The position numbers and the translations under genes were made by a program. A stretch of 64,000 bases of DNA from Paraspadella gotoi (Eukaryota > Animalia > Chaetognatha), in contig CM119269.1 of the NCBI GenBank assembly GCA_051294375.1, positions 20,254,814-20,318,813 on the forward strand, written 5' to 3'. How positions within the stretch are numbered: the stretch's first letter is position 1; every line of letters begins with the position of its first letter. The notes under the pieces are model-generated. The model ran no database searches and was not told where the DNA came from. It saw only the letters and a list, made by a program, of their open reading frames with translations. Below are positions 3,001 through 60,423 of the stretch, piece after piece.

Positions 3001-3346
3001 TCGGATTGATTTCACCCCATCCGGAGACAATGACGGGACTTCCGGCGTCGTAGAAGCTCGTATCGGTAGGGTCCGGCAGGCATGCCGGTTGGACGTTCGG
3101 TGTCCAACTTAGAGGCGTCTTCAGGCGCAGCAGAGCAATGTCGTTTTCGTTCGAGTCCTTGAACAAAGAGTTTACTGAGATCAGTTTTTAGCGTGCTCTT
3201 AAAGAAATTGTCGGATGTTTTCATTTTTATGATACATGTGTCTCCCTACTCTCTATGTCGTGGTCTTCCGCAATATTATATTATTTTATTTTATTCACTT
3301 TTATTAACCTCGTTGTAATCAGGATGCAGAATAAAGTCTGCGATTT
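1..3346. repeat. Segment duplicated at 9360-12699 (copy A, ends at N-gap)
   Basis: Starts TACCGCGTCCAGAGTGTAAC as at 9360 and is collinear to ...GTCTGCGATTT (12699); differences are mostly homopolymer-length indels. Confidence 0.95.
1729..3346 (-). CDS. Trypsin-like serine protease 1, partial duplicate copy (3' exons only, cut by gap)
   Basis: Exons encode NDIALLRL (catalytic Asp), PACLP, SGWG and [10 protein letters not shown] (catalytic Ser); essentially identical to 11074-12699. Confidence 0.85.
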
Positions 3347-12300: not shown

Positions 12301-12699
12301 CTTCACTTATCTTTTGGACACGAGAGTCACTTACTAAACCCTTAAACTTACTTTTCGGATTGATTTCACCCCATCCGGAGACAATGACGGGACTTCCGGC
12401 GTCGTAGAAGCTCGTATCGGTAGGGTCCGGCAGGCATGCCGGTTGGACGTTCGGTGTCCAACTTAGAGGCGTCTTCAGGCGCAGCAGAGCAATGTCGTTT
12501 TCGTTCGAGTCCTTGAACAAAGAGTTTACTGAGATCAGTTTTAGCGTGCTCTTAAAGAAATTGTCGGATGTTTTCATTTTTATGATACATGTGTCTCCCT
12601 ACTCTCTATGTCGTGGTCTTCCGCAATATTATATTATTTTATTTTATTCACTTTTATTAACCTCGTTGTAATCAGGATGCAGAATAAAGTCTGCGATTT
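9360..12699. repeat. Segment duplicated at 1-3346 (copy B)
   Basis: Collinear near-identity with 1-3346. Confidence 0.95.
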
Positions 12700-13853: not shown

Positions 13854-16973
<3,120 letters not shown>

Positions 16974-33100: not shown

Positions 33101-36100
33101 GAGGTTTTAATCTTGTCATCATATCAGGATACAACTGAATACCTTACATTGAAAATCTCTTTAAATGTATGCATCCTATGTTATTACTAATTTCTTTATT
33201 ATCTGTTATTTTTTTATTTATCATGAATTTAATCTTCTTAATAATTTTATTGGTTCTGGTCTGTATTTCCAAGTATTTTACTACTTAATGCTGATACTCA
33301 TAAAAAAATTCATGCCATCTGGGAAAAGTATTTTTGAGGCTTAAAATATTAGTAATACAAATTGAAAATATAGTTTAAAAGAAATTAAAACAATAAAAGA
33401 AATATATGTTTTTATTTATCTTAAAAATAATATAAGACAAAATATTTTGATTCAGAAATTGTCCTATCTTAATTAAAAATATTTCTTTACCTAGGCAATA
33501 TCAGTAACACTTTGCTCACTGGCAATGCTCAGTTAAATCAACAAAATATTACCTAAGTTCACCCCTTAGAAGAATTTGGTAGAGGAATGAATTTGAAAAG
33601 AAGGAATTTGCACAGTAATATTTGCACAGGAATGAATTGCACAGAATAAATTTGCACGGAATACTTTTTGAACGGAACAAATTTTCACAGGATTTGAATT
33701 TTGAACGGAACATAATTTGCACAGGATAATTCACAGGAATACATTGTAAAGAAAGAATTTGCACAGCATGAATTTGAACAGGAACAATTTGCACTGGAAT
33801 GAATTGCACAGAATAAATTTGCACAGAATGAATTTGCACAGAAATTAGTTTGCATAAGATACATCGTAAAAGAAATAATTGTACAGAATTAATTTGCACA
33901 GGAATACATTTGTAACAGGAATATTTGCACGGGTTGAATTTGCACAGTAATGAATTTGCACGAATGTTTGTAAGGAATAAATTTGAAAAGAATGCCTTTG
34001 CCAGGAATACTTTTGCTCTGGAAACTTTTAGCAAAGGGATAAGTTATACAACAAATGAATTTGCACAGGATTGAATTTGCCAAGGAATGAATTTTGCACA
34101 AGAATGTATTTACACTGGAATAATCTCACAGGATTGAATTTTCACACAATGAATTTGTAGAGGAATAATTTTGCACAGGAATGAATGCATAGGAAGAATT
34201 TGCACAGGAAAATTTACACAGGAATACAATTGCACACTAATGAATTTGCATAGGAATGAATTGCCACAGGAATAAATTGCACAGGAATAGCATTTGCACA
34301 AAAATTTATTCCTGTGCAAATTCATTCCTGTTAAAATTTATTCTGTGCAATTTTTTTCTCTGCAAATCATTCCTGTGCAAATCAATCCTGTGCAAATTTA
34401 TTCGCTGTGCAAATCAATCTGGTTTCAAATTCATTTCTGGGCAAATTCCTCTTGTGCAAATTCCAATCCTGTGCAAATTCATCTGTGCAAATCAATCCTG
34501 TGAAATTTATTCCTGTCAATTATCCCTCTAATTATGTCCATCCTGTGCAAATTTATTCCTATGCTAATCATTCCTGTGCAAATTCATTCCTGTGCAATTC
34601 TTCCTTTTCAAATTGTATTACTGCGCATTTTTATAGCTAAGTATAGTTAATATAGTTGATAAGTAGGAGGTTAGGGTTAAGTGGGAGGTTAGGGATCATA
34701 TCGGTATCAGGTTACGAATTATGTAGGTTAGGGTTAAAGGTTAGGAACTAGGGTAAGGTAGGGTCAGAATTAACATTAGGGATAAAGCTAGTTAATTTCA
34801 GAATTAGGCTAAGGATTTGAGATTAGGTTTTGGATTAGTATGATTATATATTAAAAATATTTAAGGTTAAATATTTTGAAAATTGCCGAATTTTTATATT
34901 AAGTTATTAACTGAAAACATTTAATACTCTAATAATCTCAGGTTTAAATATTATTATTGTAACTGGTAGAGCCTTCCTTTGATTCTAAAGTATTGTTTCT
35001 AACCCTGTTAATTTTTTTTTTAATCTAATCTAAAACGTTCGATTCCCGCGGTAGTATTGTTTAAAAATTTAAGATTTTTAAAAAGTAGTCGCCAATAGAT
35101 AATAAACCTACTAAATTGGTACTTAATAAAGAAGAAATTTAAAAAATAAAAATAATTATAAAATTTTTGGAGAGTCTTTTAAACCCAAGCGTAATTCAGT
35201 AAAAGGGTTATGGTTAAATAAATTAGAATATGTTAAGTATAATAACGTTGTATTCTTGGTAACTTGGTAAAAGGCCTTCCTTTTGATTAGGAAGGTTGCT
35301 GGTTCTAACCCTGTGAACGTTTTTATTTTTATAATGCCAAAAGCTGGACGTTCGATTCCATGGTAGTATTTTTAAAAAAATTCAAACAAAAAAATTATAT
35401 AAATAATAATATTGATATTATAAGAAGAGGTGCCAATAGATATAAACATAATAAATTGTATAGCCAGAAATAAAAATTATGATGTATTTAGGATTTCCTT
35501 TACGCTTTTTTAAAATCTTCATTCAAATTATAAAACTTAAAAAAAACTAAAAAACCAAATAGTATCACTTTTTATATATGTTTGGTATTTGTTTTGATGC
35601 TGACGTTTTTTGTCTTTCAAATATATAGTCAAAAATAGGGCGCCAAAAATATTCTAAAAAACTATTAAATAGTTTCTCTTTCTAACAAACTAAAAACTTC
35701 AAGTGATGAATCAAATTGACATTTTACTAGCCAATAAAAAACTATCTTTTTGTTGGTAACTGTAACAAGCCTTCTTTTAATTGAAAAACATGAAGGGAGC
35801 TGGTTCAAACCCTGTGACCGTTCTCATTTTTTTTTATGCCAAAGCTTTAAACGTCCGATTCCCGTCATAAAGTATATTTTTAAAATTAAGCAGAAAAAAA
35901 AATATAATAAATAATAAATGATAAATATATTAAGAATAGCGGGCATAATTACTTAACCTAATCAATTGTATACCAAAATAGAAATATGGTAGCATTTATG
36001 ATATTTCTCCTTTACACCTTTTAATAAAATCATCATTAAAATAGTAAAACTTTTTAAAAACTAATAATCCCAAATGGTATCACTTTTAATATAGGTTTGT

Positions 36101-36848
36101 ATTCATTTTGATGCTGACGTTTTGGTCTTTCAGAATTATATTGTCAAAAATAAGGCCGCCAAAAATACTTCTACACACTATAAAATAGTTGTCTTTTCAT
36201 ACAAACTCAAACTAAATGTAAAGTCATCATTCAAAATATAAAACTTTAAAAAAACCTAAAAAATCGCCAAATGATATCATTTATATGTGTTTGTATTCAT
36301 TTTATGCGGACGTTTTGGTCTTTCAGAATATATTGTCAAAAAAGGGGCGCCGAAAAATTCTAAAAACATTTATTAAAATAGTTCTTCTCATACAAACTCA
36401 AAACTTAATGATGGAATCAAATTGTACTTTTTTCTAACCAATAAAATATCGGTCACTCAGTATCAAAATTTTCGACCAATAGAAGTCTCGTCACACTCTG
36501 TCGCAGCAACGGTCACAAATGTCGCATCAAAAGTGACATGTTCCGCAAAGCGTGTCACAGTCGGTCACATCAGAAAGGAAGATTTGGTGTGGACGTCACG
36601 ATGGAAGGAAGATATTGTTGACATGTCACTCACGGTCACCAACTTTCCAGCCAAGTCAGTTCCGCATCATAAGAAGGAAAATAATATTCATTCCTTCTTT
36701 CTTTCTTGTCTTTCTTTCTTTCTTTCTTCTTGTCTTTCTTTCTTCTTTCTTTCTTCATTCTTTTCTATTTTCAGCTTTCTTATTATTTTTCTTCTTTTTT
36801 TTTTAGACGTTCCTCCTCGTCTCTCTCTCTCTCTCTCTCCTCTCTCGT

Positions 36849-36933
<85 letters not shown>

Positions 36934-39900
36934 CTCTCTCTCTCCTCTCCTCTCTCTTTCTCCTTATCTTATTTCTTCTTTTACACATTCTCTCTCTCTC
37001 TCTCCAACTTCTCCTCCACCTTCATGTTTTGCTACCCGTTACCGATGGCGTTTTCTTAAAGCGCTCCCGTCGTTCTCCGTCCTCGTATCCTTCCCGAAAT
37101 ACTGATCAACAAACTTGAAGCAAATTCTCCCAAGCGTCTCGCGTCTGTTCGTCTATTGTGCCCAGCGCTCGGTCGAGCAGTGGCGGAGAGTACGTGCAGA
37201 GCTTCGTCAGGTCCTGATCGGAAAAAGTAATTGATAGATTTCGCTCGCTCTGTATCTCTCTCTCTCTCTCTCCTCTCTCTTCTCTCTCTCTCTCTCTCTC
37301 TCTCTGACTAGAACCAAATCCGAAAACTCGATCCCAAACCTTTTCATTAATATTTTTATATTTTGGATAAGAATGACTGATAATGTAAATTCTTAAGTTA
37401 CGGTCAAATTGGCCCATGGGTTTTAGAAAGAAATCGACCCAAAAAAACCAAAATTCCTCTCCCTTTTTTCAACATTCTCGCCTTTTAAGATTTTCGGCCG
37501 ATCTGACTTCCTTCTACAACTTATAATTCCGCTAGTTAATTTTTTTTCCTTATAAGGAGCGAAAGATCACAAGACTTTCTAATCTTTATAATTCTAGGCT
37601 AAAAAAATATAATACATTATTTTAACATTGGGATATTGTAAAAGTGTAATGACTTGTGAAGCCTGTGAAAGTTGAGTAATTAAAAAAATTGCCTATTTTA
37701 TTATTAAAAACTGACATTAAAGTGAAGAAGTTGAACATCTTCTGGCTCCTTTCAGTAAACATCCCTGTTCTCTAAAATAAGATAATGTTTACTTTTTGCT
37801 GGTGGAAAAGAAAGATAAATACTTAGACTGTGATGGGGTGAATAATATTTTGTAGAATTTTGTAAGCATGCTTGTAAAATCAGACAAGCAATTATTTAAG
37901 TGACGAACAGACAGAATGACAGAGACCTCGGCTTTGATATTCCTTGAGTAGTGAAGGAATCCCTGACTCTTGATTGCAAAGATGAATTCGTCGTAGTCGC
38001 CGTCACACAGGAGGGTGATGATCTCGTCCAACTGGACGATCAACTTGGTCGCATGGACCCACATACGCTCCGACCTCGAGGATGATGTAACGATCTTTAA
38101 AGTCTTACCAAGTCACAGAATCACTTTTTCACTTTTTTTTTTCTGATCCTTGAATGACAAATCCTATTAATATCATCTCACTCCCCTGCTAATACCTTCT
38201 TACTAGATTAATAGATTAATAGATAAATATAATCTCACTTCCCTGCTAATACCTTCTTACCTTTTCGTAACTAATTTCGCTTCGATAATTTAACTTTCTC
38301 TCATATCACTTTCCACCTCCTACCTCACTTTCCCTCAAATCGCTTCACCTCCTACCTCACTTTCTCAGTTATATCTCTTTCCAGCCGGACTTACCTCACT
38401 TTCTCTCATATCGCTTCACCTCCTACCTCACTTTCTCTTCATATCACTTTCCAACCTCCTACCTCACTTTCTCCTCATATCACTTTTCCACCTCTACCAC
38501 TTTCTCTCATATCACTTTCACACTTACCTCACTTTCTCTCAAATCACTTCCACCTCCTACCTCATTCTCTCATTATCACTTCCACCTCCTACCTCACTTT
38601 TCTCCTCATATCACTTTCACCTCCTACCTCACTTCTTCTCATATCACTTTCCACCTCCTACCTCACTTTCTCTCATATCGCTTTCTTTTCTACCTCTCTA
38701 TTCTTACTTTCCTCCTCCAAGTAGCACCTTACTTTGTCGAGACTTACCTCAGAGCGTCGAATCCGGACGCTTCCCCGAACTTTTCCCCCTCCTCTGGGAA
38801 CATTGCGAAAAAGTCCTCGAAGATAATGACTCCGAAGTCTTTGATTTCTCGTACTTCCATCCAGGACGAGTAGATCAGTTTTATCTCCCGCAACGTCAGG
38901 TGGCGCCCGGCCGCCCTCTGCTGTTGCCGGCAGCAGCAGCCACAGGCCCCCATGGCGGCACGAAGAGAGAATTTTCCCTTTCCCTTTTACGTATTTATTA
39001 TTGTGGGGGGGTTAATAATGATATTTTTGGTATTCTTCTTCTTATTGTAATACTAGAGCTTTTCTGCTACAATCGTTTCTAGGTTTTTATTATAAGTGCT
39101 ATTTTACGAAAACGTTATCAAATTTACATTTTAAAATTATCTCTTGTTTTTCACTTGTCTTGTTTTTCTAAGTTTTAAAAAAGGTATACTTTATTTTTAG
39201 GCCTGAATCGTTTTGTAATTTGATACATTGCGCGTTTCGTTTAAGTTCACTTTATATCGAAAGAAAAAGAACGTTTTCTTAACCGCGAAAGAACCGAATT
39301 GAAAATCAATAAAAAAACGAGGCGGAGATTTTGACATCCGAGTCCCAAGTTTCCCGATTCGCGACGGAACGAAACGTCGCGACGATGAAGATATCGACAA
39401 AGAAGAATGCGAACGTCTTGCTTTTTTTTTAATGTTTGAAATTAGATAGACGTCGACCTATCAATCAACTGATCAATCAGCCAATCAATCATTTTAATTA
39501 AGAGAGGCAGAGAAAGAAACTTTAATATTGAAAAAGATGTGACCTTTATTTTTTTTTTAATTCAAACTCTTAAATTCGATTCCATCGAAACTTTATATCT
39601 CGCTCAAATTGAGCCTCAATCACACACTTTCCGACTCAGTACCCACACACAAAATTTGATCTCAAACCATCCATTCAATTATGAATTATTTGAATAGTTA
39701 TGTAGGACTAAGCTCCGACGAACAAAGCCCGAGGTTTTTTTTATATATTCTTTATACCGGCCAAGGTAGAATGATGCAATATTGTTAATATTAAGTTTCA
39801 AAAAAACCGACTATAAATATAGAAAATATTAACCAAAATCTTTGGAAAATTCACCCCTTCTTTGGAAGATTTTCGCCATAGAAGATTTTTGCCGAATCTG

Positions 39901-42900
39901 ACTCCCGGTTGAAAACTCTTTAGAATTCCGATCGTTAGCTCCTCTTTTACTTTTACTTTAAATAAAAATTTCACCAAAATGGACTAATTCACTTTTACCA
40001 TGATCGTATCATATCAAAATAACCTAATAAAATGTAAAGAAAAATTTTGAGAGCCCTTCAGACACTTTGCCAAAGATTCCAAAATTGGACCTCATTTGTT
40101 GAACAGGAACATACCTCAGTCATGTTTATATCGTTTTCAAGGAAAAAAATCCCTTTCATTTCTATATAAAATCAGAGATGGAAAATTTTTCGTCCAGAAG
40201 CAGTCTATTTGTTCTGGCTTGTTTGATATCAAGATGTTTATGATTTGACAAGAGAAAAAAATGCGAGCCCTTCAGATGCAACAGGATCAGAATCAAGTGT
40301 TTTTTACATCGAATATTTTACCAGAATTTTTACCAGGAGCGTTTATATTGTTTGGTAGTCAGATTTGAACGAAAATCTCCATTGAAAAAGTCTTCCTCGA
40401 TCTCTAAGAACGACGTAGACTCCTAAGTTATGAGTAAATATAAGTAAACGAATTCAAGTAAATATGACTTTGTTTATTCCATTTAAATTCATTTCAATTC
40501 GCACGATTCCATCCAAACTTTATATCCAAACTTTAGCTCAATCACACACAAAATTTCAAGTCAATCTTGCACTCACGTGTAATTGAGTTTTTTAATTTTC
40601 GCAGTAGGCTATATTTATATATAGTACAATCCTTATAAAATCGAAAAATTTCAAATTAGGCTTTTCTTAATTTTGATTGCAGATTTGAATTCCTCGTCAA
40701 AAGTTGATAAAAGAAAATATAGATCGTTTTTAAAAATTATTTTATTAAGTGGTTAAAATTTAAAAAACTATATTTAATATATAAAAAGTTAATTTTCAGC
40801 TTAAACTATAGCTTTTTCTAATTTTTGACCCACTTAATGAAGGAATTTTTCAAAAAGAGTTATATTTCTTTTTATCAACTTTTTATGACAAATCCAAATC
40901 TGCAAAAAAAATCTTTAAAAAAACTGTTTTGAAATTTTAACATTTATTGGTTTAGTACTAGTATAAATATGGCCTACTGCGTTAATTGTAAATTTATTAT
41001 AAATTTTTTATTACATAAATGTTTATTAGTATAATGTTGTTCGTTCCTCACTTTTAGAATTTTAATTAAAGTTAAATTTAGGAATTTTACTACGCCTTAC
41101 TGCTAGGCGGCACCGGGCTAGAACCCCGGACCTTTGGGTTGGGAGGCAAATGACTTGCCTCCGGCACCAATGGCACTGATGAGGTTGGTGGATTTAAGTC
41201 CACCATACTAACAATTAATTTTACCATTTTTTAAAATTTATCCTTTCATTAATTAATTTTTGCTTTTCTCCTCGGCTTCATTTCTTTCTTTTTTTTCTTC
41301 TAACTCTTTATTTCTTCAACTTTATATCTCGCTCAAATTGAGCCTCAATCACACACTTTCCGACTCAGTACCCACACACAAAATTTGTCTAAACCATCTC
41401 ATGATTTTAATTAAAATATAAAAATTCCTTAATCCTCAATTCAATTCGATTCCATCCAAACTTTTATATCAACTTTATATCAAACTTTAGCTCAATCACA
41501 CACAAAATTTCAAGTCAATCTTGCACTCACGTTTAATTGAGTTCAAAGCAAAGGGGGACGGACGGACGGACGGACGGATGGACATATAGATGGACAGACA
41601 GACAGACGGATGAACATATGTTTTTTTACATAATTTATCATAATTCCATGCTCTGACATGAAGTGTCTTACCGACAAGATTGTGGTGACGGACCGACGGA
41701 CCGACAAAGTGAAATTATAGAGCCGGAATCTGCTGTAAGTAGATCCGGCTAATAAAAAAATTCAACGATATTCAGTCCAGATTTTCTAAATTTACGGGAA
41801 AAGTTAGGATTCTTAAGGGAACCCAGTGATCGAGGGGGGTCAGGGGGGGTAAAAGGCTGATATCATAACGTTTGGTCCTTCAATCTCCCCCGATTCCAAA
41901 AATGTAATTCTTTCTTCTCTAGTCCAAGGGGAAAGTGGTCAAAAAATTCGATGTTGTCAGCTCGCCTATTTTGTTTAAAAATTCGGTAAGGGGCAAATCT
42001 TTTCCAAGTTTCGATTTTTTCTTTCACGTAAGATGGTATAGAATTTTTTTTTGTTTCCAACTTTACACTAAAAATTATTCGAAAACGAAGGCGAAGACCA
42101 TGACAAAAAATATGACGAAGAAAAGACAACAAAGAATACGGCAGCAAAAAAGAGAGAGAGAAAGAAAGAAAGACTCGGAAAGAGAGAGTTTCAAATTTAA
42201 GCAAGCAGCGGGGATTTAGTACAGATTAATAAGTTAATAATTGACATTTTTATTGTGATTATGACGACGAAAACGACAAAACAATGACAAAAAATACGGC
42301 GAATATGACGAAAAAAAGTTAGAGGAAAACGACGATGAAGAGGAAGACAAAACCGATGACGAAAAAGACAAAGAAGACGAAAACGACGGCGAAGACGACG
42401 AAAAAGATGAAGCCGAAAACAACGAAGACGAAAAACGATGGTGAAGATGACGGCAAAGACGAACTCATAAACACTGTCAATGATTTTTTATTATAAATTT
42501 ATTGACATAGTGGTAATAACCTTTCTTTTTCGTTGTTATGTGTATTAGAAATTTAGAGGCAATTTGGTTTCCTCACCACTTGATCACTATTCTTTCTCAA
42601 CTCTGTGTGGGAAACTTTGCCCTCTCTCTCTCTCTCTCTCCCTTCTTTCACACAAAAAAACTGTCTAACAATTCACAAATTATTTGACGCTGATGAAGGC
42701 TTGCATTCAAAGCCGAAACGTTTTGAAACGTTTCTTTGAAATAAAAATTTGTTGTAAACTGAAACCAAATTGCCTATAAATTTATTATAACGAAAACGAC
42801 AACGAAACGATGAAAACGACGACTAAACGACAAAGAAAACAATACGAAGACGACGACGAAAACGACAACGAAAACGATGAAGACGACAAAAACAACGTAA

Positions 42901-45900
42901 GATGACGACGAAGACAACGATGACGACGAAGACAACGATGACGACGAAGACAACGATGACGACCAAGACGACGAAAATTACGACGAAAACGACGACGAAA
43001 AAGATGACAAAAACGACGACGAAAAATGACGGTGAAAACGACGACGAAAACGACGACGAAAATGACGGTGAAAATGACGGTGATAATGACGACGACGGTG
43101 AAGACGACGACGACGAAACTGTGTGTAAGTTAAAGAGAGGAGAGAGACAGAGAGAGAGAGAGAAAGAGAGAGAGTCATCGTTTAAATTGAACGAACTTCC
43201 ATGAATAATCACTGGATTTACCGGGTCTCCAATATTTCTAAATTTGTTTTTTTTTTTAGATTCGGAAAGAATTTTAGAAAGAAATCGGTGAAAACGACGA
43301 CGATGAAAACTGACTGTGAAGACGAAGACAAAACCAACTCACTCTCTCTCTCTCTCTCCAAACCGATGACGAAAAAGATGAAGAAACGACGGCGAACACT
43401 TTGTCATTGAATTCTTTTTATTAGAAATTTTATTACAACGAGTGAGATAGAAATGAGAGAGAAAGGAAAAAAAATATAATTGAAACCAATATGCATTTTC
43501 AATTTTATTATAAATTTGATTTTGAAATTCATTAGCCTCGCAGACGTATTTTGCTGGTCGTCTTCTATTTCTGTTAAAAATATTGGTTAAGAGTTAAATT
43601 TTATTCATTCACTATTTACTAACTTTATAATAAGATTTTAGCATCAATATCTCCATTTTATTGTTGGAATTAGTCCAGTCTTTTCCGTACGATGTTGAGT
43701 TCATCACTTTCCGTCGGGGCCACCTCGTACGCTGATTATTTTCAAATCAATTCACTAATTGGATAGAAACGTAACCTCCAACATTAATACAAGTATGAGA
43801 AGAGGAAGCGCTCTTTATCTCTCCTAAAATTAAATCTGTTGCAAACTACAGTCAACGGAAACCGGAAAGATATCACATAGGGCATAAGAAATGTTTACCA
43901 AATGAAATGACATCCTTGTTTGAATTTTAAGAGGGATTTGACCTTTTTTTCTGTCCTTTCCTGTGCGTGTATGAAGGAGATGATATCACTATTAAAATTC
44001 CTTTATCAGAGGAGGCCCAGACCCAAGAATTCAGCTTTCTGCATTAAAAAATAAAAATTCGAATTATGGAAAAATGACTTCCCAAGTGAAAGTAGAGAAT
44101 GGAGGGTATCAGTATTTAGGGGAGATCAATTAAAAATTTTCCAAATAAATATCTCGTCCTTGTTCGAATTGCAACAAGGAGATGGGAATTTTTTCTCCAC
44201 TTTCCCGCGCGAAGAAAAATTAATGACTATCACCATTCGAATTCATTTAATGATAGACCCTTAAGCTTATGATATCATTTTTATCACTGGGTCCCCTTAA
44301 GGTTTACGTTTACGTAGAATAAAAAAGTCGAGACAGAGTGCAAAAAATTGGAGCCCGAAACAAAGTTACAAAGGTATACCGTATAGAGTTTGACTACAAA
44401 AAAATATGAAATTAGTACAACCAATTTAAAAAATATCAATTCATTGGATAAATGCTCTCTTGCCCCTGACGTTAGACACGCTATGTAATAGAAAAATGGC
44501 AAGAGAAGTAAACAAGCTTTAGCAACAAAGACGTGGTGACATTGACAGTAATTATTAATGATAAAAATAAATAAATGAAAAAAGTACTTTGCAAGTATAG
44601 GTGAAAAAAAAGTAAGAGAAAAAAAGGAAGGGAAGAGTGAATCACTGAATCACCGTCACCTTTGACTTCCTCAATTCCTCATCCCTCTCAGGTTGATGGA
44701 ATCGTGACCAAAACCGGAGACCCGACTTCCTACATCTGGTGCGAGGCAACGACCAACAAGGGTGTCGTGGTCAAGTGCACTCCGGACGGTTACGTCTACA
44801 ACGAGGACATACCCGCCTGTGTCCCTCCGCAGTATAATGCCGTAAGGAAGTGGTGGTGCAATGGCAATATCCACTAGCACATATTTACAATTAAAAAACT
44901 TTTTTTCTTAAATCAGGCGACGACTAAATGCAAAAACCTTCCGAATACCTGGACTTGCACTACAAACTTTAACGTGGGAACCGTCTGTACTCTCACTTGC
45001 GATACAGGTGAGGGCTGAAAAAGATAAATGTAAAATATTGTTCAAACTTTCTCCAATAAAGCCTTAAAGTGATCGTGACTGAGTCAAGGTTGAAAATAGG
45101 AGTCAATTCGAAATTCTTCTTTCTGGAGTTTCGCGTTTGAAAATAAAAAGTTTAATAAATTTTTATAGTTGCCCGTTTACCTTTGGTTGGGGTGCTTAAA
45201 ATGCCGGTACTAGTGTAAATATAATTCAAAGCAAAGTTGCCTTTTTTTCTCGTTTTACAAGCTTGTTTCCCTGCTTCTCTAAGGTTACGCTCCCTCGGAC
45301 GGAGGAAATGGGATGGTCACTTGTTTGCAAGGATCGAACACGCACGCCAAATGGGACAAACCTATTCCGACATGCAAGTCCAAATGCGTCCCAAATCCCT
45401 GCGTGCAAGGAACATGCGCGCTTCAGGGGGGCAACGCCCAATGCACTTGCACTGCCGGTTGGGAAGGTGAGAATAAGAAAGTGAAGGACGACGTATGGGC
45501 GAAATAGGCTCGGTTTACGAGGATCAAAAATTTGTATAGAAAATTCGTTTTTTAACCGTTTGTTCATTTGATTTTTTTCTTCTTATAGTAAGTTTTTCCA
45601 GCTAACAAAATTTATTAAGCTACGAATTTTTTTATCGAGGCCCAACCTGCACAAAAGTTAAGTTCATGTGTGGCTCCAAAAATTGCGGAAACAAAGGCTA
45701 CTGCATCAACAACATCAACGATCCAAAATGCGAATGCGTTGCTGGTTACGAGGGGAGCACTTGCGCCGACAAGGTAAATCTCAAATGTGGTATGGTTTGG
45801 AATTCTTGGGTAAGGAAGTGAAGATTAAAAACTTGTAGTTAATTGAATTGAATATTCGTGAAAGAACTTAAGGGAGTGGTCTTTTCATACAATTGAAACA

Positions 45901-48900
45901 TTCTTTGAAATATTATACCACTTCATTGATAGGGAAGCCAGGTACTCTGGGAGTGAATAAACGAGACTGTGAGAGAGTCTTGATTGAAAGCTTGCAGGGA
46001 CCTGCTATGTCATTATCTTGTAAGAGTGATGGAGGCCTTAAACCACCAAAGCCTGTCCAAAGTCAGGGGCAAGATAGCTTATTTATTAAATGAATGGATA
46101 ATTTTTATATTGGTTGTACCAATTTCTTAATATTCCTTTTTCTCGTTTTCAGGTTCAGTGTCCCGATCCGACCGCAGCGGTGAAAGGGACGATTGCACCC
46201 ACAGCATCCAAATACGAATTTGAAGATAAGGTCAAGGTCACGTGCGCCACCGGGTGAGTAAGAGTAAGAGAGAGAGATAGATATGGATATTGAATGAAAC
46301 GAACAAATTCCCAATGATCAGCAAATACGTCTCCGGAAAAGCGGCCACCTCCAAAACGCAAGATATTCAGTGTGGAGCAGACAAAAAGTGGACGCCAAAT
46401 ATCGAGTGTCTGCCGGTCGACTGTGGCCAGCCCAAAATACCGCCTGAAAGCGGCTCGGCGACTGCCACAGGTAAGTTTGAATAAACGACCAGCACGAAAT
46501 CCATCCCGCAGGAAGCCGCTCGGATGCCATAGGTAAGTTTGTATCAACAGCTAGCCCAACAACTTCCCATCAAGCTGGAGTCCAACTGCCATAGGTAAGT
46601 TTAAATTAAACTCCAGTTCAACATCGCTCCGACAACCGACAATAGTAAGTTAAACTTAATGGCAAAACAAACATTGCAATCGCTACAATGTCGCCACATT
46701 GTTTGCGAAGAAAAAGTGACTGAGCAGTCACAAGTAACAGAGTTGTGACAGAGAAAACTTGCGACAGAGTTGACTGTTGAGTGTTGACCTTTTCTCGATT
46801 CTCCCTCACAGCCACCGTTTACGACAGCACCGCAGATCTGAGGTGCCAAGTGGGTTACTCCATCCCTACTCTTAGCGGTGCCAACAGCGGAACTTTGAAA
46901 TGTCAAGACAACGGAGAGTGGGGCACTGCGGTTTGCCAGCCGCATAACTGTCAAGCTCTCACGGCGCCTGCCAACGCTCTATCCGTTACTCGTGAGTACT
47001 TTAAATTAAAAGTTATGTCTTTCGTTAATTCATTCATTTAATCATTTTTAGTTTTATTTATTATTGATAATAAATTTTTATTATTATTATTATTAATATT
47101 ATTATTTTACAACTATTCATAGAAAAATTTAAGTCATTTTGTCTTTCTTTATTCCCTTCCGAGACCTAGGTTGATTCTTTAATTTCCATTTTCATTTATT
47201 CATAAATTCACCTAATGAAGAGACAGTAATTATTGATATGTGTTAATGACAGAACCGTTCAATATAAGCAGTCCCTGAGCTTCGGATCAGGCAGTAACAC
47301 CGAGTTAGTTAGGCGGCCACCGGGATAGAACCCCGTGCCTTTGGGTTGGGAGGCGAATGACTTGCCTCCGGCACCAATGGCCACTGATGAACGGTTGGTG
47401 GATTTTAGTCCACCATACTAACAATTAATTTTACCATTTTTTAAAATTTATCCTTTCATTCATTAATTTTTGCTTTTCTCCTCGGCTTCATTTCTTTTTT
47501 TTTCCTCCTAACTCTTTATTTCTTTCACCCTTAGAACCCGTGACTACTTTTGGCAAATCGGCGACGATCACCTGCAGCGTGGGTTACATCGTCAAGGACA
47601 CCACCTCCAACACGGGTTCCGTCATCTGCAAACTTCCCGGCACCGGAACTAACGCCGCCGGTTGGGCCGATTTCCCGGGATGTGTGGAGAAGGTCTGCGA
47701 TGGTCCGCCCGTACCGACCTCGCCTACGGGTGAGTCAATTCGTCTCGAATTAAAATTTTACATGTCGTAGAACAAGTGAAGATTTATACTTGCCACAATA
47801 GCATAAAATATTGAATTTTTAATTTTACAATTTACCTATTTTAGGGACATTGTTATTTAGTGAGTTGTCATAAAAATTGTATAAAAAAGAAATGTAACTC
47901 TGTTCACAAAATTCACGTTGGTCAAAAGTTTTATATATATATATATCATAAATAGATAGCGGCATTATATGTATTTTTTTTAGTGTGGCATATGGTGGAT
48001 GAAGATATTTTGAAACGATTTTTCGGTTAATTTTCAGGTTTAACCAACATCGGAAGTCTTAACTACAACGGGAATTCTTCACCTTACAAATACAACAATG
48101 AGGTACAAACTTTGATGATGGTCCATGAACGACTTGAACGTATCATCTAAACATAAATATCTATTTTTTAAACCTATTGTCGTATCGTATCCTTTCTTTG
48201 CGTTGGGTAGTATCATTAAATGAAGAATTTTGTTTTCTTAACAATTTTGTATAAAGTGAAAATTATTTTCCCCCGCAATCTAACCTCTTCAGGTGACCCT
48301 CCAATGCCAAGCAAATTACAAAGTCAACGGCGGCGACGCAAACAAAAAACTCAAATGCTCCTACACCGGGTGGGTTCCGATGACTGTGACGCCGTCTTGC
48401 ACTCCGCTCAAGTGCAATATAGCATTCGGGACGGGATTCGCCAACGGAGACGTCGTCTTCTCCAACTCGGACAATGTCGGCACTAAAGCCACCATTACTT
48501 GCAAGCCGGGATATATCATCGACTCCACGGTCGGAACGCTGCTAACTCAAGTTTAAAATATACTTTCGTATTATTTCAGTCCTTTCAGTTCTGCTTTTCT
48601 TTAATATGATCTACTTTAAGACTCGGACGGCACATAGGTCCATTCTGTACTGAACATTATTCATCTCCATTTTTTGGTTGTGCCAGGAGTACTCTAGAGC
48701 AACTCTATAATATCACGTGTAGGTGGTTCGATCGGTGGTTCTGTCTGTTTGTCTGTCTATCCATTGGCCTGTCTTACATTTAAATTGATCAAAGTAATTC
48801 GGGTAATATTGCCATAATTCAGTTAATAATACATAGTAGTAGGGTGATATACCATAAGATTCAGAATGTGCACGTGTTTCATATGATGACTGAAAAAAGC

Positions 48901-51028
48901 GCGGGGTATCTCACAAACTGGCGTAGGGGCTGCGGACCCTCAGTGTCCGCCTCTGTCGCTGGCATGTTTAAACCACCTTCGTCACGTTTAAGCCATAATC
49001 GGGATAACCCGGGATTGAACCCGTGACTCATGTTTCAAACGAGATGATTTAGACTACACAGCCATTGAGACGAGGCTGATGACGGACAGCGGTGAGGCAG
49101 CTTTAAGTTATGCTGCAGTATATGTAGTCAATCCTCTGAAAATAATTATTCAAAAGTAAGTCACATAAGAGCTTGAACTTACCAGTTACTGTATCCATGC
49201 TGTTGACGTGCCTTTTAAATCTGTCTTCCCTCAATTTTTTTTAGTTTTAAACGTTAAGCTATCAATCAATATCTATAATTTCCTCAACAATTGAATTAAA
49301 CAAATACATCTTCAAAACGACGACTTATCGTTTGATGCCTCATCTTTTTTTTTCCTCTCGCAAAGACGACCACCACGAAAGATCTGACTTGCTCGGCCAA
49401 CTCTCAGCAAGACGACACCGTCTGGAGCCCCTCAAGCATCCCGTCATGCAACAAACGATCTTGTCCCGGCCTCAACAACCCGACCCATGGCTCCTGGTCG
49501 GTCAACGCGGGCTCCTTCGGCGATAAGGCCAAACTCACCTGCAATACAAACTACTTCCCTTACCCGCAAAATGGCAATGATGTCGCTTGCGGACCCGCGG
49601 GAAAGTGGTTGCCCGATCCAGCAACCTGTAATGTGCGTAGTGAGACCGTTTGTGAACTGGCAAGGGTTGGTTTTATAAAAAGGACTGGCAAAGAGAAAAG
49701 TGTAGTGACGAGTAGAAATCGTGGTTGGATTAATGAAAGTAGGGAAACTAAGAAGTTCTGGCGGTATATTTACACCGCCTCAAAGTAAAAAAAAAAAGAA
49801 TAAGAATAGCATTAAGCGAATCAAAAAAAAATATTTTTTTTTCTCTAATAGGTAAAGTCTTGCGATCCGGTGGAGATCACCAACGGTAATGTGAAATTGA
49901 AGAGCAACAACAACGTCGTCACTGGATCAATTCCGGTTAACGAACAAATTTATTTCGTCTGCGACAACGGATTTAAGCTAAGCAAGGAAGGTTAGTCGCA
50001 GATTGGTAATGTTTTATTATTTCATTTAAGTAACATTCGGATTCTACCCGAGTCGCGGATCCGATTCCATTTTCGGTTCTGATTCCATCTGTGATTATTT
50101 CAAGTGTTTTATTTATTGAAAGGAGAATAACTTCTTTCCATCTTCCACTCAGTGACTCTAACCTGCCAAGATCAACCCAGCCTTAGCGTAGGCAAGTACA
50201 GCGACGATGCGCCCACCTGTCAGAACGAAGACAATTGCGTCGTCAACAAGGTCCCCGTCAATTGCGGCGCCAACGGAAATTGCAAAGACGGCGTCGCCAA
50301 ATACGTGTGTGAGTGCAATCCTGGTTGGACCAATGTCGACGTCAACGACAAGACCTCGCTCTGCACGACGCCGGTGAGCAGATTCGAAATCGGACGGAGA
50401 GTAGGTGCTATTTATTCTCTTGTCGTCAATATGGCGCTGCTTTGGTGTAGTTTGTTTTTAAGTCTCGTTTCTGTTTTAATTCCCAGGTGGATCCATGCCA
50501 AAACCAACCGTGCAAAAACAATGGGGCCTGTACCCTCAACACCGCCTACACAACAGATTCCAACCTTTATCCCTATAAATGCGACTGCAATCCGAGCACC
50601 AGATTTTCTGGGTACGATTGTGAGAAAGACAACCAGATTTCCGCGCCAGCCAAATGTTCTGGTGAGTTCAACGTCAACTCGTTCTCTCGTTTCTCGATTT
50701 TTTTTTTGATTCATCCTTGTCATCTTTTATGAGGCAGTCTATATGGCAGAAAATTATAACAATAATGTTAAAAATAGAAACCGACCGACTAACTTTTGAA
50801 TTTTTCTTCCGTTTCTTCTCAACGTTTTTCTCCGCCATAACCCTTTCAAAAGATGTGGGTAGTCAACCTCACCCGGGCAGCTGCTTGAAGTTTTACACCT
50901 GCCAATGGGGTAACTCTCAAGTCCAAAGTTGTCCACCCAACAACGTCTTCGACTCGACGATCAGTAATTGCCAAGTGCCTCTCCTGGCGAAGGCCGCGTC
51001 CAAATGCACCGCCAACAACAACTTGTGA
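21104..51028 (+). CDS. Secreted multidomain protein: signal peptide - CBM14 - sushi - EGF x2 - sushi x7 - EGF x2 - CBM14 (16 exons)
   Basis: Exon 21104-21238 (MGLVFVLISCCCVLL...ECTNLQ, phase 0) joins 44692-44841 (..YIWC..KC..YVYNEDIPAC); then 44917-45007, 45284-45466, 45640-45773, 46153-46253, 46322-46469, 46812-46991, 47535-47729, 48038-48102, 48293-48529, ~49366-49632, 49852-49990, ~50153-50373, 50488-50661, 50852-51028 (HPGSCLKFYTC..SCP..VFD..C). Cys/Trp spacing fits CCP, EGF and peritrophin-A domains. The link to exon 1 crosses N-gaps. Confidence 0.85.
22100..22730. repeat. ~18-20-bp satellite (TTTTTCAACTTGCATAA)
   Basis: About 30 degenerate tandem units. Confidence 0.9.
22860..23970 (+). 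mobile_element. Non-autonomous Helentron/DINE-like element with internal ~90-bp subrepeats, (GGAC)n tract and terminal hairpin
   Basis: Subrepeat AAACTTT..AGCTCAATCACACAC..ACAAAATTTC; end GACAAAGTGAATATAGAGTCGG...CCGACTAAAAA matches 41555-41760. Confidence 0.6.
24600..34625. repeat. ~16-bp satellite (AAATTCATTCCTGTGC) in alternating forward and reverse blocks, partly highly degenerate
   Basis: ATTCCTGTGCAA blocks versus TTGCACAGGAAT blocks, with polarity switches near 26370, 29440, 30320, 32105 and 34290; AT-rich spacer at 32200-33550. Confidence 0.9.
34668..34835 (+). repeat. Degenerate TTAGGG-like tract
   Basis: Multiple GGTTAGGG/TAGGG variants next to the satellite end. Confidence 0.55.
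34950..36420. repeat. Degenerate tandem repeats: tRNA-like unit x3 (~34958, 35257, 35753) and ~170-bp unit x3 (~35550, 36070, 36270)
   Basis: Recurrent GGTAA..GCCTTCCTTTTGATTAGGAAGG..GGTTCTAACCCTG..ACGTTCGATTCC, and recurrent GCTGACGTTTTGGTCTTTCAGAAT..GGGCGCCAAAAA. Confidence 0.65.
37022..38953 (-). CDS. N-terminally acylated (globin X-like) globin, 3 exons, nested antisense in an intron
   Basis: Exon 38748-38953 MGACGCCC...SW..FGVIIFEDFFAMFPEEGEKF (B10 Phe, C2 Pro, CD1 Phe); exon 37927-38074 MWVHA (E7 His), GFLHY (F8 His); exon from 37213 with H-helix TRDAWENL. In-frame TGA at 37106-37108; next stop at 37022. Confidence 0.88.
38290..38685. repeat. ~34-bp minisatellite in globin intron 1
   Basis: Unit CACTTTCTCTCATATCACTTTCCACCTCCTACCT, about 11 copies. 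Confidence 0.9.
40600..40981. mobile_element. Palindromic MITE (~380 bp)
   Basis: Ends CGCAGTAGGCTATATTTA / TAAATATGGCCTACTGCG; imperfect complementarity continues inward (TGCAGATTTG/CAAATCTGCA, AAAAGTTGATAAAA/TTTTATCAACTTTT). Confidence 0.85.
41097..41205 (-). mobile_element. tRNA-headed element family 1, truncated copy (ribozyme part lost)
   Basis: Reverse complement matches 51243-51346 and stops after AGCAGT. Confidence 0.85.
41320..41760 (+). mobile_element. Helentron/DINE-like element end with (GGAC)n and hairpin GCCGGAATCTGC-TGTAA-GTAGATCCGGC
   Basis: Same family as 22860-23970; the subrepeat also occurs at ~39590 and ~40500. Confidence 0.65.
42549..42783 (+). mobile_element. Inverted-repeat-bounded Penelope-like remnant with degenerate minimal hammerhead motif
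   Basis: IR AAATTTAGAGGCAATTTGGTTTC / GAAACCAAATTGCCTATAAATTT; CTGATGA-A-GGCTT-GCATTCA-AAGCC-GAAACGTT at 42690-42722. Confidence 0.6.
42790..43116. repeat. Degenerate (GAC/AAC/GAA)n trinucleotide tract (similar tract at 42260-42460)
   Basis: Direct reading. Confidence 0.85.
47216..47415 (-). mobile_element. tRNA-headed element family 1, internally deleted copy
   Basis: Reverse complement matches 51243-51466 except for loss of the 5' half of the ribozyme; retains P4 CCTGA-TCCGAAGC-TCAGG. Confidence 0.9.
48670..48770 (+). mobile_element. Helentron-like element terminus
   Basis: TTTTTGGTTGTGC...GAGCAACTCTATA followed by a (GTCT/GTCG)-type tract; like 51840 and the reverse complement of 60420. 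Confidence 0.5.
48919..48995 (-). ncRNA. Twister ribozyme-like RNA, P5-type permutation, diverged (family 2)
   Basis: Reverse complement: TGGC-TTAA-ACGT-GA-CGA-AGGTGGTT-TAA-ACAT-GC-CAG..CTG-AGGG-TCCGCAGC-CCCT-AC-GCCA; twister element order conserved, several point mutations. Confidence 0.6.
48996..49085 (-). mobile_element. tRNA-derived head of element family 2
   Basis: Reverse complement has arm CTCGT-TTGAAAC-ATGAG, B-box GGTTCAATCC, and upstream TCATCAG as in family 1; acceptor stem decayed. Confidence 0.6.
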
Positions 51029-51104
51029 TCGACCGACTGGTAAAGAATCTATTTCCATTTTTACCAACCAATTTTTGCTCCGCTATAATAATTTCAAGAA
51101 ACGT

Positions 51105-51110
51105 AATAAA
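51105..51110 (+). promoter_or_regulatory. Polyadenylation signal of the CBM14/sushi gene
   Basis: AATAAA 77 nt after the stop codon. Confidence 0.55.
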
Positions 51111-51242
51111 AAAAAATGAACTAAAATTTTATTCGTACTAATTAATTAAATCGTCGTTTTTTCATGAGATGTATGATATATTTCGTATCGTATCCTTGTT
51201 GCCCAAAGATTCCAGCTTTTTTCGTGAAATATATATATATTA

Positions 51243-51466
51243 TGGTGGATTAAAATCCAACAACCGTTCATCAGCGGCCATTGGTGCCGGAGGCAAGTCA
51301 TTCGCCTCCCAGTCCGGGGTTCTAGCCCGGTGGTCGCCTAGCAGTTAAGAGGGACGGGGCGCTTAACCCGCCTGTAACATGGTGTTACAGCCTGATCCTA
51401 AGCTCAGGGACTGCTTATATTGAACGCTTCTGTCACTAACACATAACAATAATTACTGTCTCTTCA
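51243..51466 (+). mobile_element. tRNA-headed SINE-like element family 1, most complete copy, inserted in (TA)n
   Basis: Three copies in the window; head 51274-51337 has acceptor-like stem GCGGCCA/TGGTCGC, A-box-like TGGTGCCGGAGG and T-arm CCGGG-GTTCTAG-CCCGG. Confidence 0.85.
51340..51415 (+). ncRNA. Twister self-cleaving ribozyme, P5-type permutation (family 1)
   Basis: P5 AGCAGTT/GACTGCT; P2' GAGG; conserved GA; T1 CGG; GGCGCT at the P1 position; U^AA at 51364/51365; P2 CCC; T2 GC; P3 CTGTAACA/TGTTACAG; P4 CCTGA/TCAGG with loop TCCTAAGC (twister UNNNAAGC loop). Confidence 0.75.
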
Positions 51467-51838
51467 ATATATATATAATTAGAAAATATTTTTCAGGAAC
51501 TCTCACGACAAAACCAGGACCTCCGGAGCCACAGATTTCGAACAAAAGAAAAAAAAGAAATTGTGACACCAAAAGATTCGGGATATTTTCGGGAAAAAAA
51601 ATATGAAAAAAGGGTCCTTCTGTATTTTTTTTTCCGCTACCTGGCGAGTCAATTTATGTTCTTAACTCAATTTCTCACTTTTTTATGCGTTGAACTTGGA
51701 ATCTCACTGTTGGATTTTATTTACCCTCACATTGACAATACATCTCGTTCATGAACTTTCACTTTAATGTTTTGTTTCACTACGTCAAAAGAAACTAAAT
51801 TTTTACTCTCCGTGAATTTTCAGCTAATTTAGAGTTTG

Positions 51839-52060
51839 CTTTTTAGTTACGCGGAGCAACTCTATGACTAACTTTCGGTCTTCTGTCGGTCGGTCTTTCG
51901 GTCTGTCGGTCGGTATGACTGTCCGTTGTTCTGTCCCACTTACGTTAAAAATGCACATAATTTGCCTATAGTTAGTTGCTCATTTGTTAAGAAGGAAAAT
52001 CTAAGGGACTGCTAGTGCCGCTTTCTGGAAATCCTAAATGCGAAATTCCGTTGCAGTGCT
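51839..52060 (+). mobile_element. Helentron-like non-autonomous element (inverted copy at 60230-60423)
   Basis: TTTTTAGTTACGCGGAGCAACTCTAT + (GGTC)n + CTGTCCCACTTAC..AAAATGCACATAATT; reverse-complement match at 60290-60423. Confidence 0.7.
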
Positions 52061-52384
52061 TGTCATAAATACAAAGGCAAAGATAGTTATTGAAGTCATA
52101 TATAGTCATGTCATTTTTGTTTTGTTTTATTTTTTTTAATTTTTTTGTTTTTATTGAAAAGAAATATTTTGATCATAAGAGGGTAAAAAAAAGGAAAAAA
52201 AAACATTAAAAATCATCATCATCATCGATCAATGATGTTATTATTTTTTTTTAATTTTGACTACGAATTTTAACAGTTTTAATTCTATTTTTTATATAAA
52301 TTTTTGTGGTCTATCAGAAAAAGTTAAGACTGATCATTATCATTATAAAAACATTATAACTGAACTTTTTTTAAACAAATATTT

Positions 52385-52614
52385 TTAATTATCGCGAAAT
52401 CCCTGTGATGTCCAAAAGTCACGCTCGGAGGCGGGAGCGTGAATATAGGTGAAGAGGCGTGGAACCAAACCCTTGTTTGACCTTTCGATTCGCGCGAGAC
52501 CAAAGTCGAAAAAAGTCCGAAAATCACACAAAACTTACCTTTTGAGGACCAGGATTAACTCACCCGCCTACGACGCCGGGCCTTTTAGACTTATCCCCAT
52601 CCTCCACACAAACA

Positions 52615-59950: not shown

Positions 59951-60229
59951 AAAAAGAAAGAAAGAGAGAGGGGAAGTGAAATTGTCCTATATCTATGGAC
60001 TGATATCTTAGTGAGTAAATGGATTTGATGAACACCTTGGTTATCTCTCTTTCCTTATCAGTTTTGCTTCAAGAAATCTGAAACAAGAAAAGAGAAAGAT
60101 TCGGAAAGAAAACAAGAACGGTAATTCCAATGTGTTACGCCGCAGTGACTTTATTTTATTACTAAAAAAACCTTTTTTTTGGATTTATGACATGCACTGC
60201 ATCAAAAATCTGTCTTTTATTCTTTAGTT

Positions 60230-60423
60230 TTAGGAATTCCTGAAGGCGGTGCTTGCAGTCCCTTTGATTTGAGGTTTTTTCTATCTTAACAAATGAGCGA
60301 TCAATTATAGGCTAATTATGTGCATTTTTATGTAAGTGGGACAGACTGTCAGACAGACATACCAACCGACCGACCTAAAACTGACTTAAAGAGTTGCGAG
60401 TACTCGCGGCGCAACTAAAAAAA
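60230..60423 (-). mobile_element. Helentron-like element, same family as 51839-52060
   Basis: Reverse-complement similarity; ends (GACA/GACC)n..AGAGTTGCG..CGCAACTAAAAAAA. Confidence 0.7.

Follow-up and report, generated by a model that had tools for sequence, protein, structure and literature searches.

We have identified, in the 64-kb window (the whole stretch of DNA analysed), a dispersed repeat with sharp ends that combines a tRNA-like head with a P5-permuted fold which, judged from its sequence, is almost certainly homologous to the twister ribozyme. The fold recurs in two further lineages, its helices covary between two of the three, and a palindromic six-mer stands in the place of the P1 helix. 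The six-base P1 and the two further lineages are new relative to an earlier reading of the same DNA made from its letters alone (the sequence-only reading). On balance, we favour the view that the repeat is the terminal repeat left over from a retrozyme-like element, the RNA of which would be cut efficiently only with two copies per transcript.

The copy under study is 226 bases long (51241-51466, plus strand) and lies in a TA tract, ~210 bases behind the last detected exon of an intron-rich plus-strand gene with Sushi, EGF and chitin-binding domains that extends to about 51028; this gene marks the window as eukaryotic, most probably invertebrate. Its limits were given by alignment with a sister copy and by clusters of loose contig ends at 51241 and 51466/51467, which moved the start from the previously proposed 51243 to 51241. 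BLAST found three lineage-1 copies in the window, none of them in tandem: the studied one, the sister (47216-47417, minus strand), which has an intact head, TTAG at both flanks and a ribozyme core shortened by 32 bases, and the 5' half of a third copy (41099-41207, minus strand). The flank of the third copy is identical to that of the sister, and thus it represents a local duplication and not an independent insertion. Behind 51311, the head of the studied copy is short of 8 bases that are present in both other window copies and in the loose-end consensus. Because of the 32-base core deletion, only the P4 loop of the sister is informative for the ribozyme.

Both full copies terminate in GTCTCTTCA and have no A-rich or short-repeat 3' tail; in the studied copy this 3' segment (51430-51466, plus strand) carries neither poly-A nor a repeat tail, and its terminus is common to lineage 3. 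There is no T4 run inside the unit. Sister alignment and public contigs showed a leader of 33 conserved bases ahead of the tRNA-like head, including a hairpin (51243-51262, plus strand) that pairs 6/7 here and 7/7 in the sister. The stem expected to close the whole unit was found as a basal stem around head and ribozyme (51262-51270 and 51421-51429, plus strand), with 8/9 pairs in the studied copy and 9/9 in the sister.

The interval 51203-51506 was aligned by 7,398 (X1), 14,090 (X3), 873 (X9) and 2 (X10) public contigs, which reveal neither RNA ends nor strand; the RNA origin of run X9 is only a guess. Loose ends pile up before 51241 (66, 82 and 16 contigs), with a second cluster behind 51466/51467, and outside these clusters the flanks are random and AT-rich. 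The only inner cluster among the 17 of 578 rows listed corresponded to the 8-base indel at 51311. Depth was similar on either side of the predicted cut, with no upstream drop beyond the dip at this indel, and depth at 51269-51290 resembled that at 51390-51422 (runs X1 and X3), so that a large 5'-truncated class is not visible. The contig joints listed (15 of 52) were all internal skips, and no head-to-tail joint between repeat copies was among them. Taken together, the sharp loose ends, the even depth and the joints indicate that the unit is a dispersed, full-length, very high-copy repeat. Summed depth gave a copy number of ~25,000-40,000, an unreliable figure since overlapping contigs are counted repeatedly.

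The variant shares at 51337, 51340 and 51380 differed strongly among runs X1, X3 and X9, which suggests subfamilies. C>T and G>A were in excess at CpG among the repeat variants, suggesting a methylated host genome. Among the deviating flanks, the base before the start was mostly G (three runs) and the base after the end C (two runs), which is odd for AT-rich DNA and may reflect a symmetric target preference.

The twister-type fold extends from 51340 to 51415 (plus strand), and each landmark that the sequence-only reading had named for it, a 76-nt fold in P5-permuted order, was found in its place. GA (51353-51354), with its G as predicted general base, is followed by the T1 strand CGG (the two spanning 51353-51357), a minimal P1 formed by the self-complementary six-mer GGCGCT (51358-51363) and the cleavage site U^A predicted by position within the motif (51364-51365), all on the plus strand. 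P3 (51372-51390) has 8 bp, P4 occupies 51391-51408 and P5 is formed by 51340-51345 and 51410-51415. Pairs were counted by position with a script, since alignment misregisters P4 and P5. In the studied copy, T1 (CGG/CCT) pairs 2/3, T2 is GC/GC, P2 (CCC/AGG) pairs 2/3, P4 4/4 and P5 6/6.

The mismatch in T1 that had been ascribed to this copy is due to the T at 51399 in its L4 loop (51396-51403, plus strand), which reads TCCTAAGC. The pairing G at this position is the majority letter in public contigs (94% of depth in X1 and 85% in X3), and with it T1 of lineage 1 becomes 3/3 (CGG/CCG); the sister loop TCCGAAGC was confirmed at 47279-47286. The A opposite C in P2, previously taken as a bulge peculiar to this copy, shows no variant among the 40 of 50 rows listed and is also found in lineage 2; hence it is not copy damage. 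The studied copy is probably impaired by the T1 mismatch together with the head deletion. Of 56 paired core positions, four had variants among the 40 of 50 rows listed: 51355, 51360 and 51399 G>A, in CpG context, and 51379, which closes the P3 loop. The lineage-1 variants in T1 resemble independent CpG decay, so compensation is seen between lineages only.

We have searched for the core with covariance models. The Rfam twister models, a check proposed with the sequence-only reading, had no match in the window nor, at E up to 10, in 46500-52500 or in the 86-base core, and they missed lineage 2 as well, whereas 20/20 control loci matched a twister family. Since Rfam also misses A-U-closed twister-like sites in six metagenome loci, we have not taken this null result as a refutation. 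Patterns derived from the Rfam consensus were used to gather P5-type twisters in viral contigs, and two models were built from phage and metagenome twisters without the query sequence (R1 from 14 sequences, R2 from 10). Both placed 51350-51407 at the top of the 64 kb, with modest scores of 21.3 and 22.6 bits and rough E-values of 0.014 and 0.0067, respectively. The second-ranked site of the window was 46025-46067 (17.8 bits), which falls in lineage 2.

A descriptor allowing one T1 mismatch returned one real site, and any site in 15/300 block-shuffled windows; with a perfect T1, a site appeared in 1/300. A tighter descriptor, written after both sites were known, returned two real sites, with at least one site in 5/200 shuffles and two in 0/200. 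Apart from the Rfam score and a canonical P1, lineages 1 and 2 display all the features examined for the twister motif.

The scan of metagenomes yielded 40 loci that share just the 19-base P4 word with the repeat. Twister-like sites with this word were seen at L002/L004/L005, L006, L007, L014, L015, L022 and L031; in such loci T1 covaries (CCA/TGG, CCT/AGG) and T2 has an A-C mismatch. In the six P4-word loci scanned with Rfam, it missed the twister-like sites and matched other twisters nearby. Family patterns had 0 matches in viral contigs; in prokaryote genomes they gave 0 matches and 1 match, the latter a 21-base stretch due to chance.

Lineage 2 has its twister core at 46015-46075 (plus strand) in a unit tentatively placed at 45844-46127, with all T1, T2, P4 and P5 pairs intact and AGGCCT as P1; a partial, decayed copy lies at 44405-44485 (minus strand). 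Lineage 3 is represented by a decayed copy with a twister remnant (16432-16728, plus strand, 5' start tentative), located by nhmmer (E 3.6e-4) and by a model of sequence only (E 0.001). It has GA at 16628, GTTGGT as P1 and GAC at the cut site, and ends in GTCTCTTCA as lineage 1 does. Counted by position, lineage 2 pairs 3/3 in T1 (TGG/CCA), 2/2 in T2 (AC/GT), 2/3 in P2 (ACC/AGT), 4/4 in P4 and 6/6 in P5, and the lineage 3 remnant 3/3 in P2, 4/4 in P4, 2/3 in T1 and 1/2 in T2. P4 is therefore 4/4 in all three lineages, and P2 is 3/3 in lineage 3, with just two standard pairs and an A-C in the other two lineages.

Between lineages 1 and 2, T1 changes from CGG/CCG (majority letter) to TGG/CCA, T2 from GC/GC to AC/GT, the first P2 pair from C-G to A-T and P5 from AGCAGT/ACTGCT to ATCTTG/CAAGAT, while GA, TAA, the TAAG linker and the GA-to-cut spacing are identical. 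Such compensatory change argues for selection on the fold. Thus, the compensatory changes anticipated among copies were present between lineages (T1, T2, P2 and P5), and the variation within lineage 1 looked like CpG decay. With the custom models ranking the site first and lineage 2 covarying, the twister reading itself was supported.

For lineage 2, the prediction includes a basal stem comparable to that of lineage 1 but unlike it in sequence. Within it, a long branched hairpin (45930-46010) occupies the place of the tRNA head; the fold z-score for 45860-46135 was -2.52. Around the collapsed core of the partial lineage-2 copy (44405-44530, minus strand), TCTCTTG upstream pairs with CAAGAGA as a compensated P5.

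The segment from the T1 strand to the cut is exactly six bases in each lineage (GGCGCT, AGGCCT and GTTGGT in lineages 1, 2 and 3), and every one of these six-mers can form 6/6 pairs with another copy of the same sequence, in the third case through G-U pairs only. A six-mer is expected to self-pair by chance with a frequency of ~0.055, G-U allowed, and the three lineages are related by descent. Positions 3 and 4 change from C-G in lineage 1 to G-C in lineage 2; adjacent bases cannot pair in one strand, and the pairs inside the six-mer require a second copy in order to form. As a monomer, P1 would consist of one pair and a palindromic tetraloop, and six pairs would arise only between two copies. 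In phage loci, the P1 segment had 16-30 bases in 42/46 distinct descriptor matches.

The same design has been reported for hammerheads that act as dimers, with a palindromic stem III: those of axolotl, with a single pair and a palindromic tetraloop, are described as weak as monomers and much better as dimeric constructs (PMC7229834), and a dimer-acting palindromic design is likewise described in the part of PMC6765202 that deals with Penelope hammerheads. According to the passages on P1 in PMC6154101, this helix is dispensable for twister cleavage; accordingly, pairing between copies may speed cutting rather than permit it, and a monomer may cut unaided. An enhancement of the predicted cleavage by a second copy is reasonably probable. 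The phage contigs L080 and L093 (20-139), considered as a precedent for the six-base P1, turned out to be two P1-type twisters back to back, separated by a six-base linker. An isolated exact 12-base match to linker-GA-T1 at 8172-8183 (minus strand) has no flanking core and is probably due to chance.

We have also compared folding energies. The minimum-energy fold is not the twister, as the T1 strand pairs with the P2/T2 strand; fold z-scores were -2.27 for the core and -0.91 for the whole unit. The secondary-structure energy of a strand-swapped dimer was -50.9 kcal/mol, against -31.4 kcal/mol for two monomers in the twister-compatible fold (-39.2 kcal/mol when the lone P1 pair is left out). 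In the competing fold, two monomers reached -58.0 kcal/mol, better than the swapped dimer, in a calculation that excludes tertiary terms.

The degenerate tRNA-like head (51274-51337, plus strand) is, from its sequence features, very probably derived from a tRNA, and resembles Gly-CCC in the undeleted sister. Its acceptor-like stem (51274-51280/51331-51337) is paired 7/7 with one G-U, and the common variants retain pairing: 51334 T>C turns G-U into G-C, and 51337 C>T turns G-C into G-U. A B-box-like motif (51318-51328, plus strand) starts with GGTTC, the conserved box B in the pertinent part of PMC10886601, and would serve as a Pol III internal promoter; the A box is partial, and the D and anticodon arms pair poorly. 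ARAGORN reported no tRNA with default settings. At a lowered score, it called the sister head a tRNA-Gly(CCC) pseudogene (84%, attained by 1/1000 shuffles) and the head of the third copy at 80% (reached by 8/1000 shuffles), a level that is weak alone with 31 calls across the window; the studied copy, with its head deletion, was called only in another register. Rfam had no tRNA match in the window, in 46500-52500 or in the sister head. The sequence-only claim of a tRNA head was thus sustained in its placement and acceptor-like stem, with support weaker than for the twister. By its sequence, the head is not a working tRNA, and its use by Pol III is presumed. No tRNA head was recognised in lineage 2; the head may therefore have been gained by particular lineages only. 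A possible B-box remnant, seen by eye only, is present in lineage 3.

Two features of the copies bear on how the repeat may spread. The 33-base leader is out of reach of transcription from an internal Pol III promoter, and the head would be lost to an active ribozyme, yet the copies are full length; a permuted RNA from two repeats would explain both. In addition, the loose ends at 51241 and 51466/51467 and the absence of a depth drop speak against a template that starts at the head or at the cut. In the full two-copy mechanism, which we regard as slightly the better bet, Pol III would initiate at the tRNA-like head of the first copy and, with no internal T4, continue into the second. The six-mers of the two copies would pair, giving a full 6-bp P1 to each core, and both U^A sites would be cut, releasing a permuted unit that has a 5'-OH at one end and a cyclic phosphate at the other. 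These ends, held together by P2, P5 and the basal stem, would be joined by a host ligase, and the circle, with one weak monomer ribozyme, would be stable. A borrowed reverse transcriptase would then copy the circle back, restoring leader and head before the ribozyme, and the copies in the window would be single, mostly dead repeats. Precedents in which two repeats in one transcript give a permuted unit are described for retrozymes in parts of PMC4918200 and PMC7761336, and also for SM-alpha. More tentatively, this may be a new animal retroelement family, a pair-gated "double twister" whose palindromic six-base P1 would leave a lone copy weak, with two copies in one Pol III transcript completing each other's active site and releasing a permuted unit that is then circularised.

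As to the partner, an LTR-type (Gypsy) element is the one we prefer, at somewhat less than even confidence, and a Penelope-type partner seems less likely. The sister has the 4-bp flank TTAG on both sides, and the studied copy is compatible with ATAT but lies inside a TA tract. Duplications of 4 bp are produced by plant retrozymes and by animal Helenus, according to the portions of PMC4918200 and PMC10886601 that describe insertion. Lineage 3 has no such duplication (CAAA vs ACTA), and in lineage 2 it depends on a start chosen afterwards. The unit ends in TA...CA, with the 3' CA common to lineage 3. In the loose-end consensus no PBS or PPT stood out (agreement ~0.4, among 17 of 578 rows listed), and no paired LTRs with PBS and PPT between them were found within the window. 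The 3' consensus of X3 and X10 has TGG one base past the end, a faint PBS-like hint.

We have weighed other readings of the repeat. The same ribozyme and two-copy logic could belong to a non-LTR retrozyme or to a Penelope-like pLTR, perhaps of Naiad type, with a partner encoding RT and GIY-YIG, which we hold to be rather unlikely but the strongest of the competitors. The end repeats of Penelope elements typically carry palindromic ribozymes that act as dimers (PMC6765202, in part), animal retrozymes are proposed in the available portion of bioRxiv 2026.07.22.740005 to be non-autonomous Penelope derivatives that can be mostly monomers, initiation of the Penelope RT at fixed internal sites (PMC11167929, in part) may yield a sharp end, and a TA tract such as that around the studied copy is the target of Naiad Penelope-like elements in the corresponding section of PMC8557442. 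On the other side, the window copies have no partial tandem, inverted arm or one-sided tail, the joints listed (15 of 52) are only internal skips and both ends are sharp; moreover, three family words from the ribozyme (9-10 bases) are absent from the Naiad/Chlamys supplement, where a 9-base end word occurs once, in a different context. It is improbable that the repeat is a SINE or SINE-like composite, transcribed by Pol III and copied by a LINE, with the twister as a passenger from an RTE 5' end and a poor cutter or none at all. The B box in its tRNA-like head and the lack of an internal T4 run would suit this reading, as would the competing inactive fold that computes as more stable and the twisters found at the 5' termini of RTE elements, Perere-3 among them (PMC8501958 and PMC7761336, in part). 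Yet the leader lies upstream of the internal promoter and is present in copies, there is no tail, and the way in which paired bases change together from one lineage to another points to selection on the fold; RTE twisters are P1-open and cut at the element 5' end in the part of PMC8501958 describing them, whereas this one is P5-permuted with a mid-element cut. The sequence-only reading had proposed a SINE/retrozyme-like family; the retrozyme-like half fits better, and leader, missing tail and even depth across the cut tell against the SINE half.

Still less probable is the capture of the tRNA-like sequence and the twister by a MITE- or Helentron-like non-autonomous element that now spreads as DNA, with 9-bp inverted arms and an end hairpin as its signals. 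A 4-bp duplication is compatible with some DNA transposases too, and such an element would agree with the fixed ends of the full-length copies, with the inverted arms, which are short and asymmetric, and with the hairpin at the terminus. However, there is no terminal inverted repeat, the arms double as closure of the RNA fold, with lineage 2 predicted to have a comparable stem of other sequence, and spread at the DNA level would not preserve pseudoknot pairs across lineages. That the twister likeness arose by chance in a repeat of other origin is highly improbable: the missing Rfam match, the whole-element z-score of only -0.91 and the T1 mismatch of the studied copy would fit, but independent models rank the site first, two sites occurred in none of 200 shuffled windows and four helices compensate. 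We have further discarded a minus-strand hammerhead (CTGATGA near 51266-51272), for which no GAAA partner was seen by eye, and a theta-like maturation of a tRNA 3' end, the predicted cut being too distant from the head.

The reading as a leftover of a retrozyme-like element, which we continue to favour, can be set against known systems. With twister type P5 (RF02684, clan CL00120) the repeat shares the strand order P2'-GA-T1'-P1-UAA-P2-T2-(P3)-P4, the L4 loop UNNNAAGY and two pseudoknots, and its P3 start GCCTGTA matches the twister-P1 consensus. It differs in its six-base palindromic P1 instead of a 16-30-base hairpin, a P2 of two pairs plus A-C, a P5 helix that closes the core and the lack of an Rfam match. 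Animal non-LTR retrozymes and schistosome SM-alpha repeats are, in the parts of PMC7229834, PMC6765202 and bioRxiv 2026.07.22.740005 that describe them, short non-coding repeats with a self-cleaving motif mid-unit, as is predicted here; SM-alpha is also described with a Pol III promoter before the ribozyme, and amphibian retrozymes with one pair and a palindromic tetraloop, which cleave as dimers (PMC7229834). The analogy with SM-alpha drawn in the sequence-only reading is apt as to the tRNA-like, promoter-like head and the mid-unit motif; the ribozyme class differs, with a type I hammerhead there and a twister here. Animal non-LTR retrozymes differ also in that here the copies are dispersed and single, with a duplication apparently of 4 bp against a longer one in the portions describing theirs. 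No hammerhead was matched by Rfam in the window, in 46500-52500, in the 86-base core or in the sister head. As modelled, the repeat would work like a retrozyme, but it falls outside the class as defined by a hammerhead, its motif being a twister.

Plant LTR retrozymes have the ribozyme inside the terminal repeat, a 4-bp duplication, solo repeats and conserved short ends, and cleavage in two repeats gives a permuted RNA that is circularised; as far as the retrozyme sections of PMC4918200 go, they differ in a type III hammerhead active alone, in being restricted to plants and in having no tRNA-derived promoter described. Helenus TRIMs share a tRNA-like sequence inside the terminal repeat, the repeat flanking both sides, a 4-bp duplication in animals and many solo repeats; the portion of PMC10886601 concerned describes no ribozyme and an example LTR with TG...CA ends, unlike the TA...CA of the repeat, and five family words had no match in its supplement. 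The T-variant twisters of Perere-3 (RTE, Schistosoma mansoni) have a weakened P1 in a high-copy animal retroelement, and in their P1-open form the cut sets the 5' terminus of a LINE that codes for protein (PMC8501958, as far as its Perere-3 section goes), whereas the predicted cut of the repeat is internal and its unit non-coding with a tRNA-like head; the five family words were also absent from this supplement. Theta ribozymes of gut phages also lie directly behind a tRNA sequence, but in the part of PMC10879173 treating them they are HDV-like and cut beside a functional tRNA. In the mobile repeat, the predicted twister cut lies 27 bases behind a degenerate tRNA-like end and not at the end, and the earlier analogy with theta ribozymes is therefore weak. 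Against SINE2 elements, the unit has the tRNA segment with Pol III boxes, does not start at the head and lacks a tail.

Twisters are widespread in animal genomes. Their documented role in animals is the trimming of the 5' end of RTE-type retrotransposons (PMC8501958, in the passages on that role), PMC5680766 mentions twisters only generally in its pertinent passages, and the retrozymes in the compared parts of PMC4918200, PMC7229834 and PMC6765202 are all hammerhead-based. Searches of the openly available full-text literature listed no paper on a twister in a tRNA-headed repeat, LTR, Penelope element or dimer, in agreement with the earlier statement that no description of the family was known; the family could be catalogued in subscription papers, in repeat databases such as Repbase and Dfam, in bioRxiv supplements or in the original twister lists without its ribozyme being noted. 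If the two-copy mechanism holds, a second ribozyme class would support the cut-and-circularise route, through a twister placed mid-unit in a repeat that is non-coding and tRNA-promoted, and its palindromic P1 would be evidence that gating by copy number arose in twisters as well as in hammerheads. As a tRNA-promoted twister retrozyme, present in one genome in at least three lineages, the repeat would stand to twisters as the double hammerhead does to hammerheads, and its retention of a ribozyme that otherwise would sever its own promoter would be explained. As the cores are invisible to Rfam, more may be overlooked.

Two further repeats or duplications were seen in the window. Directly downstream of the studied copy, a separate repeat with a GTCG/CTGT microsatellite block (51840-52040, plus strand), which looks like a Helentron-associated (DINE-1/HINE-type) element, has a related copy at 60229-60379 (minus strand). 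The segments 1-3346 and 9360-12699 form a 3.3-kb duplication with 98.9% identity, which may be a recent segmental duplication or may have been introduced by the assembly.
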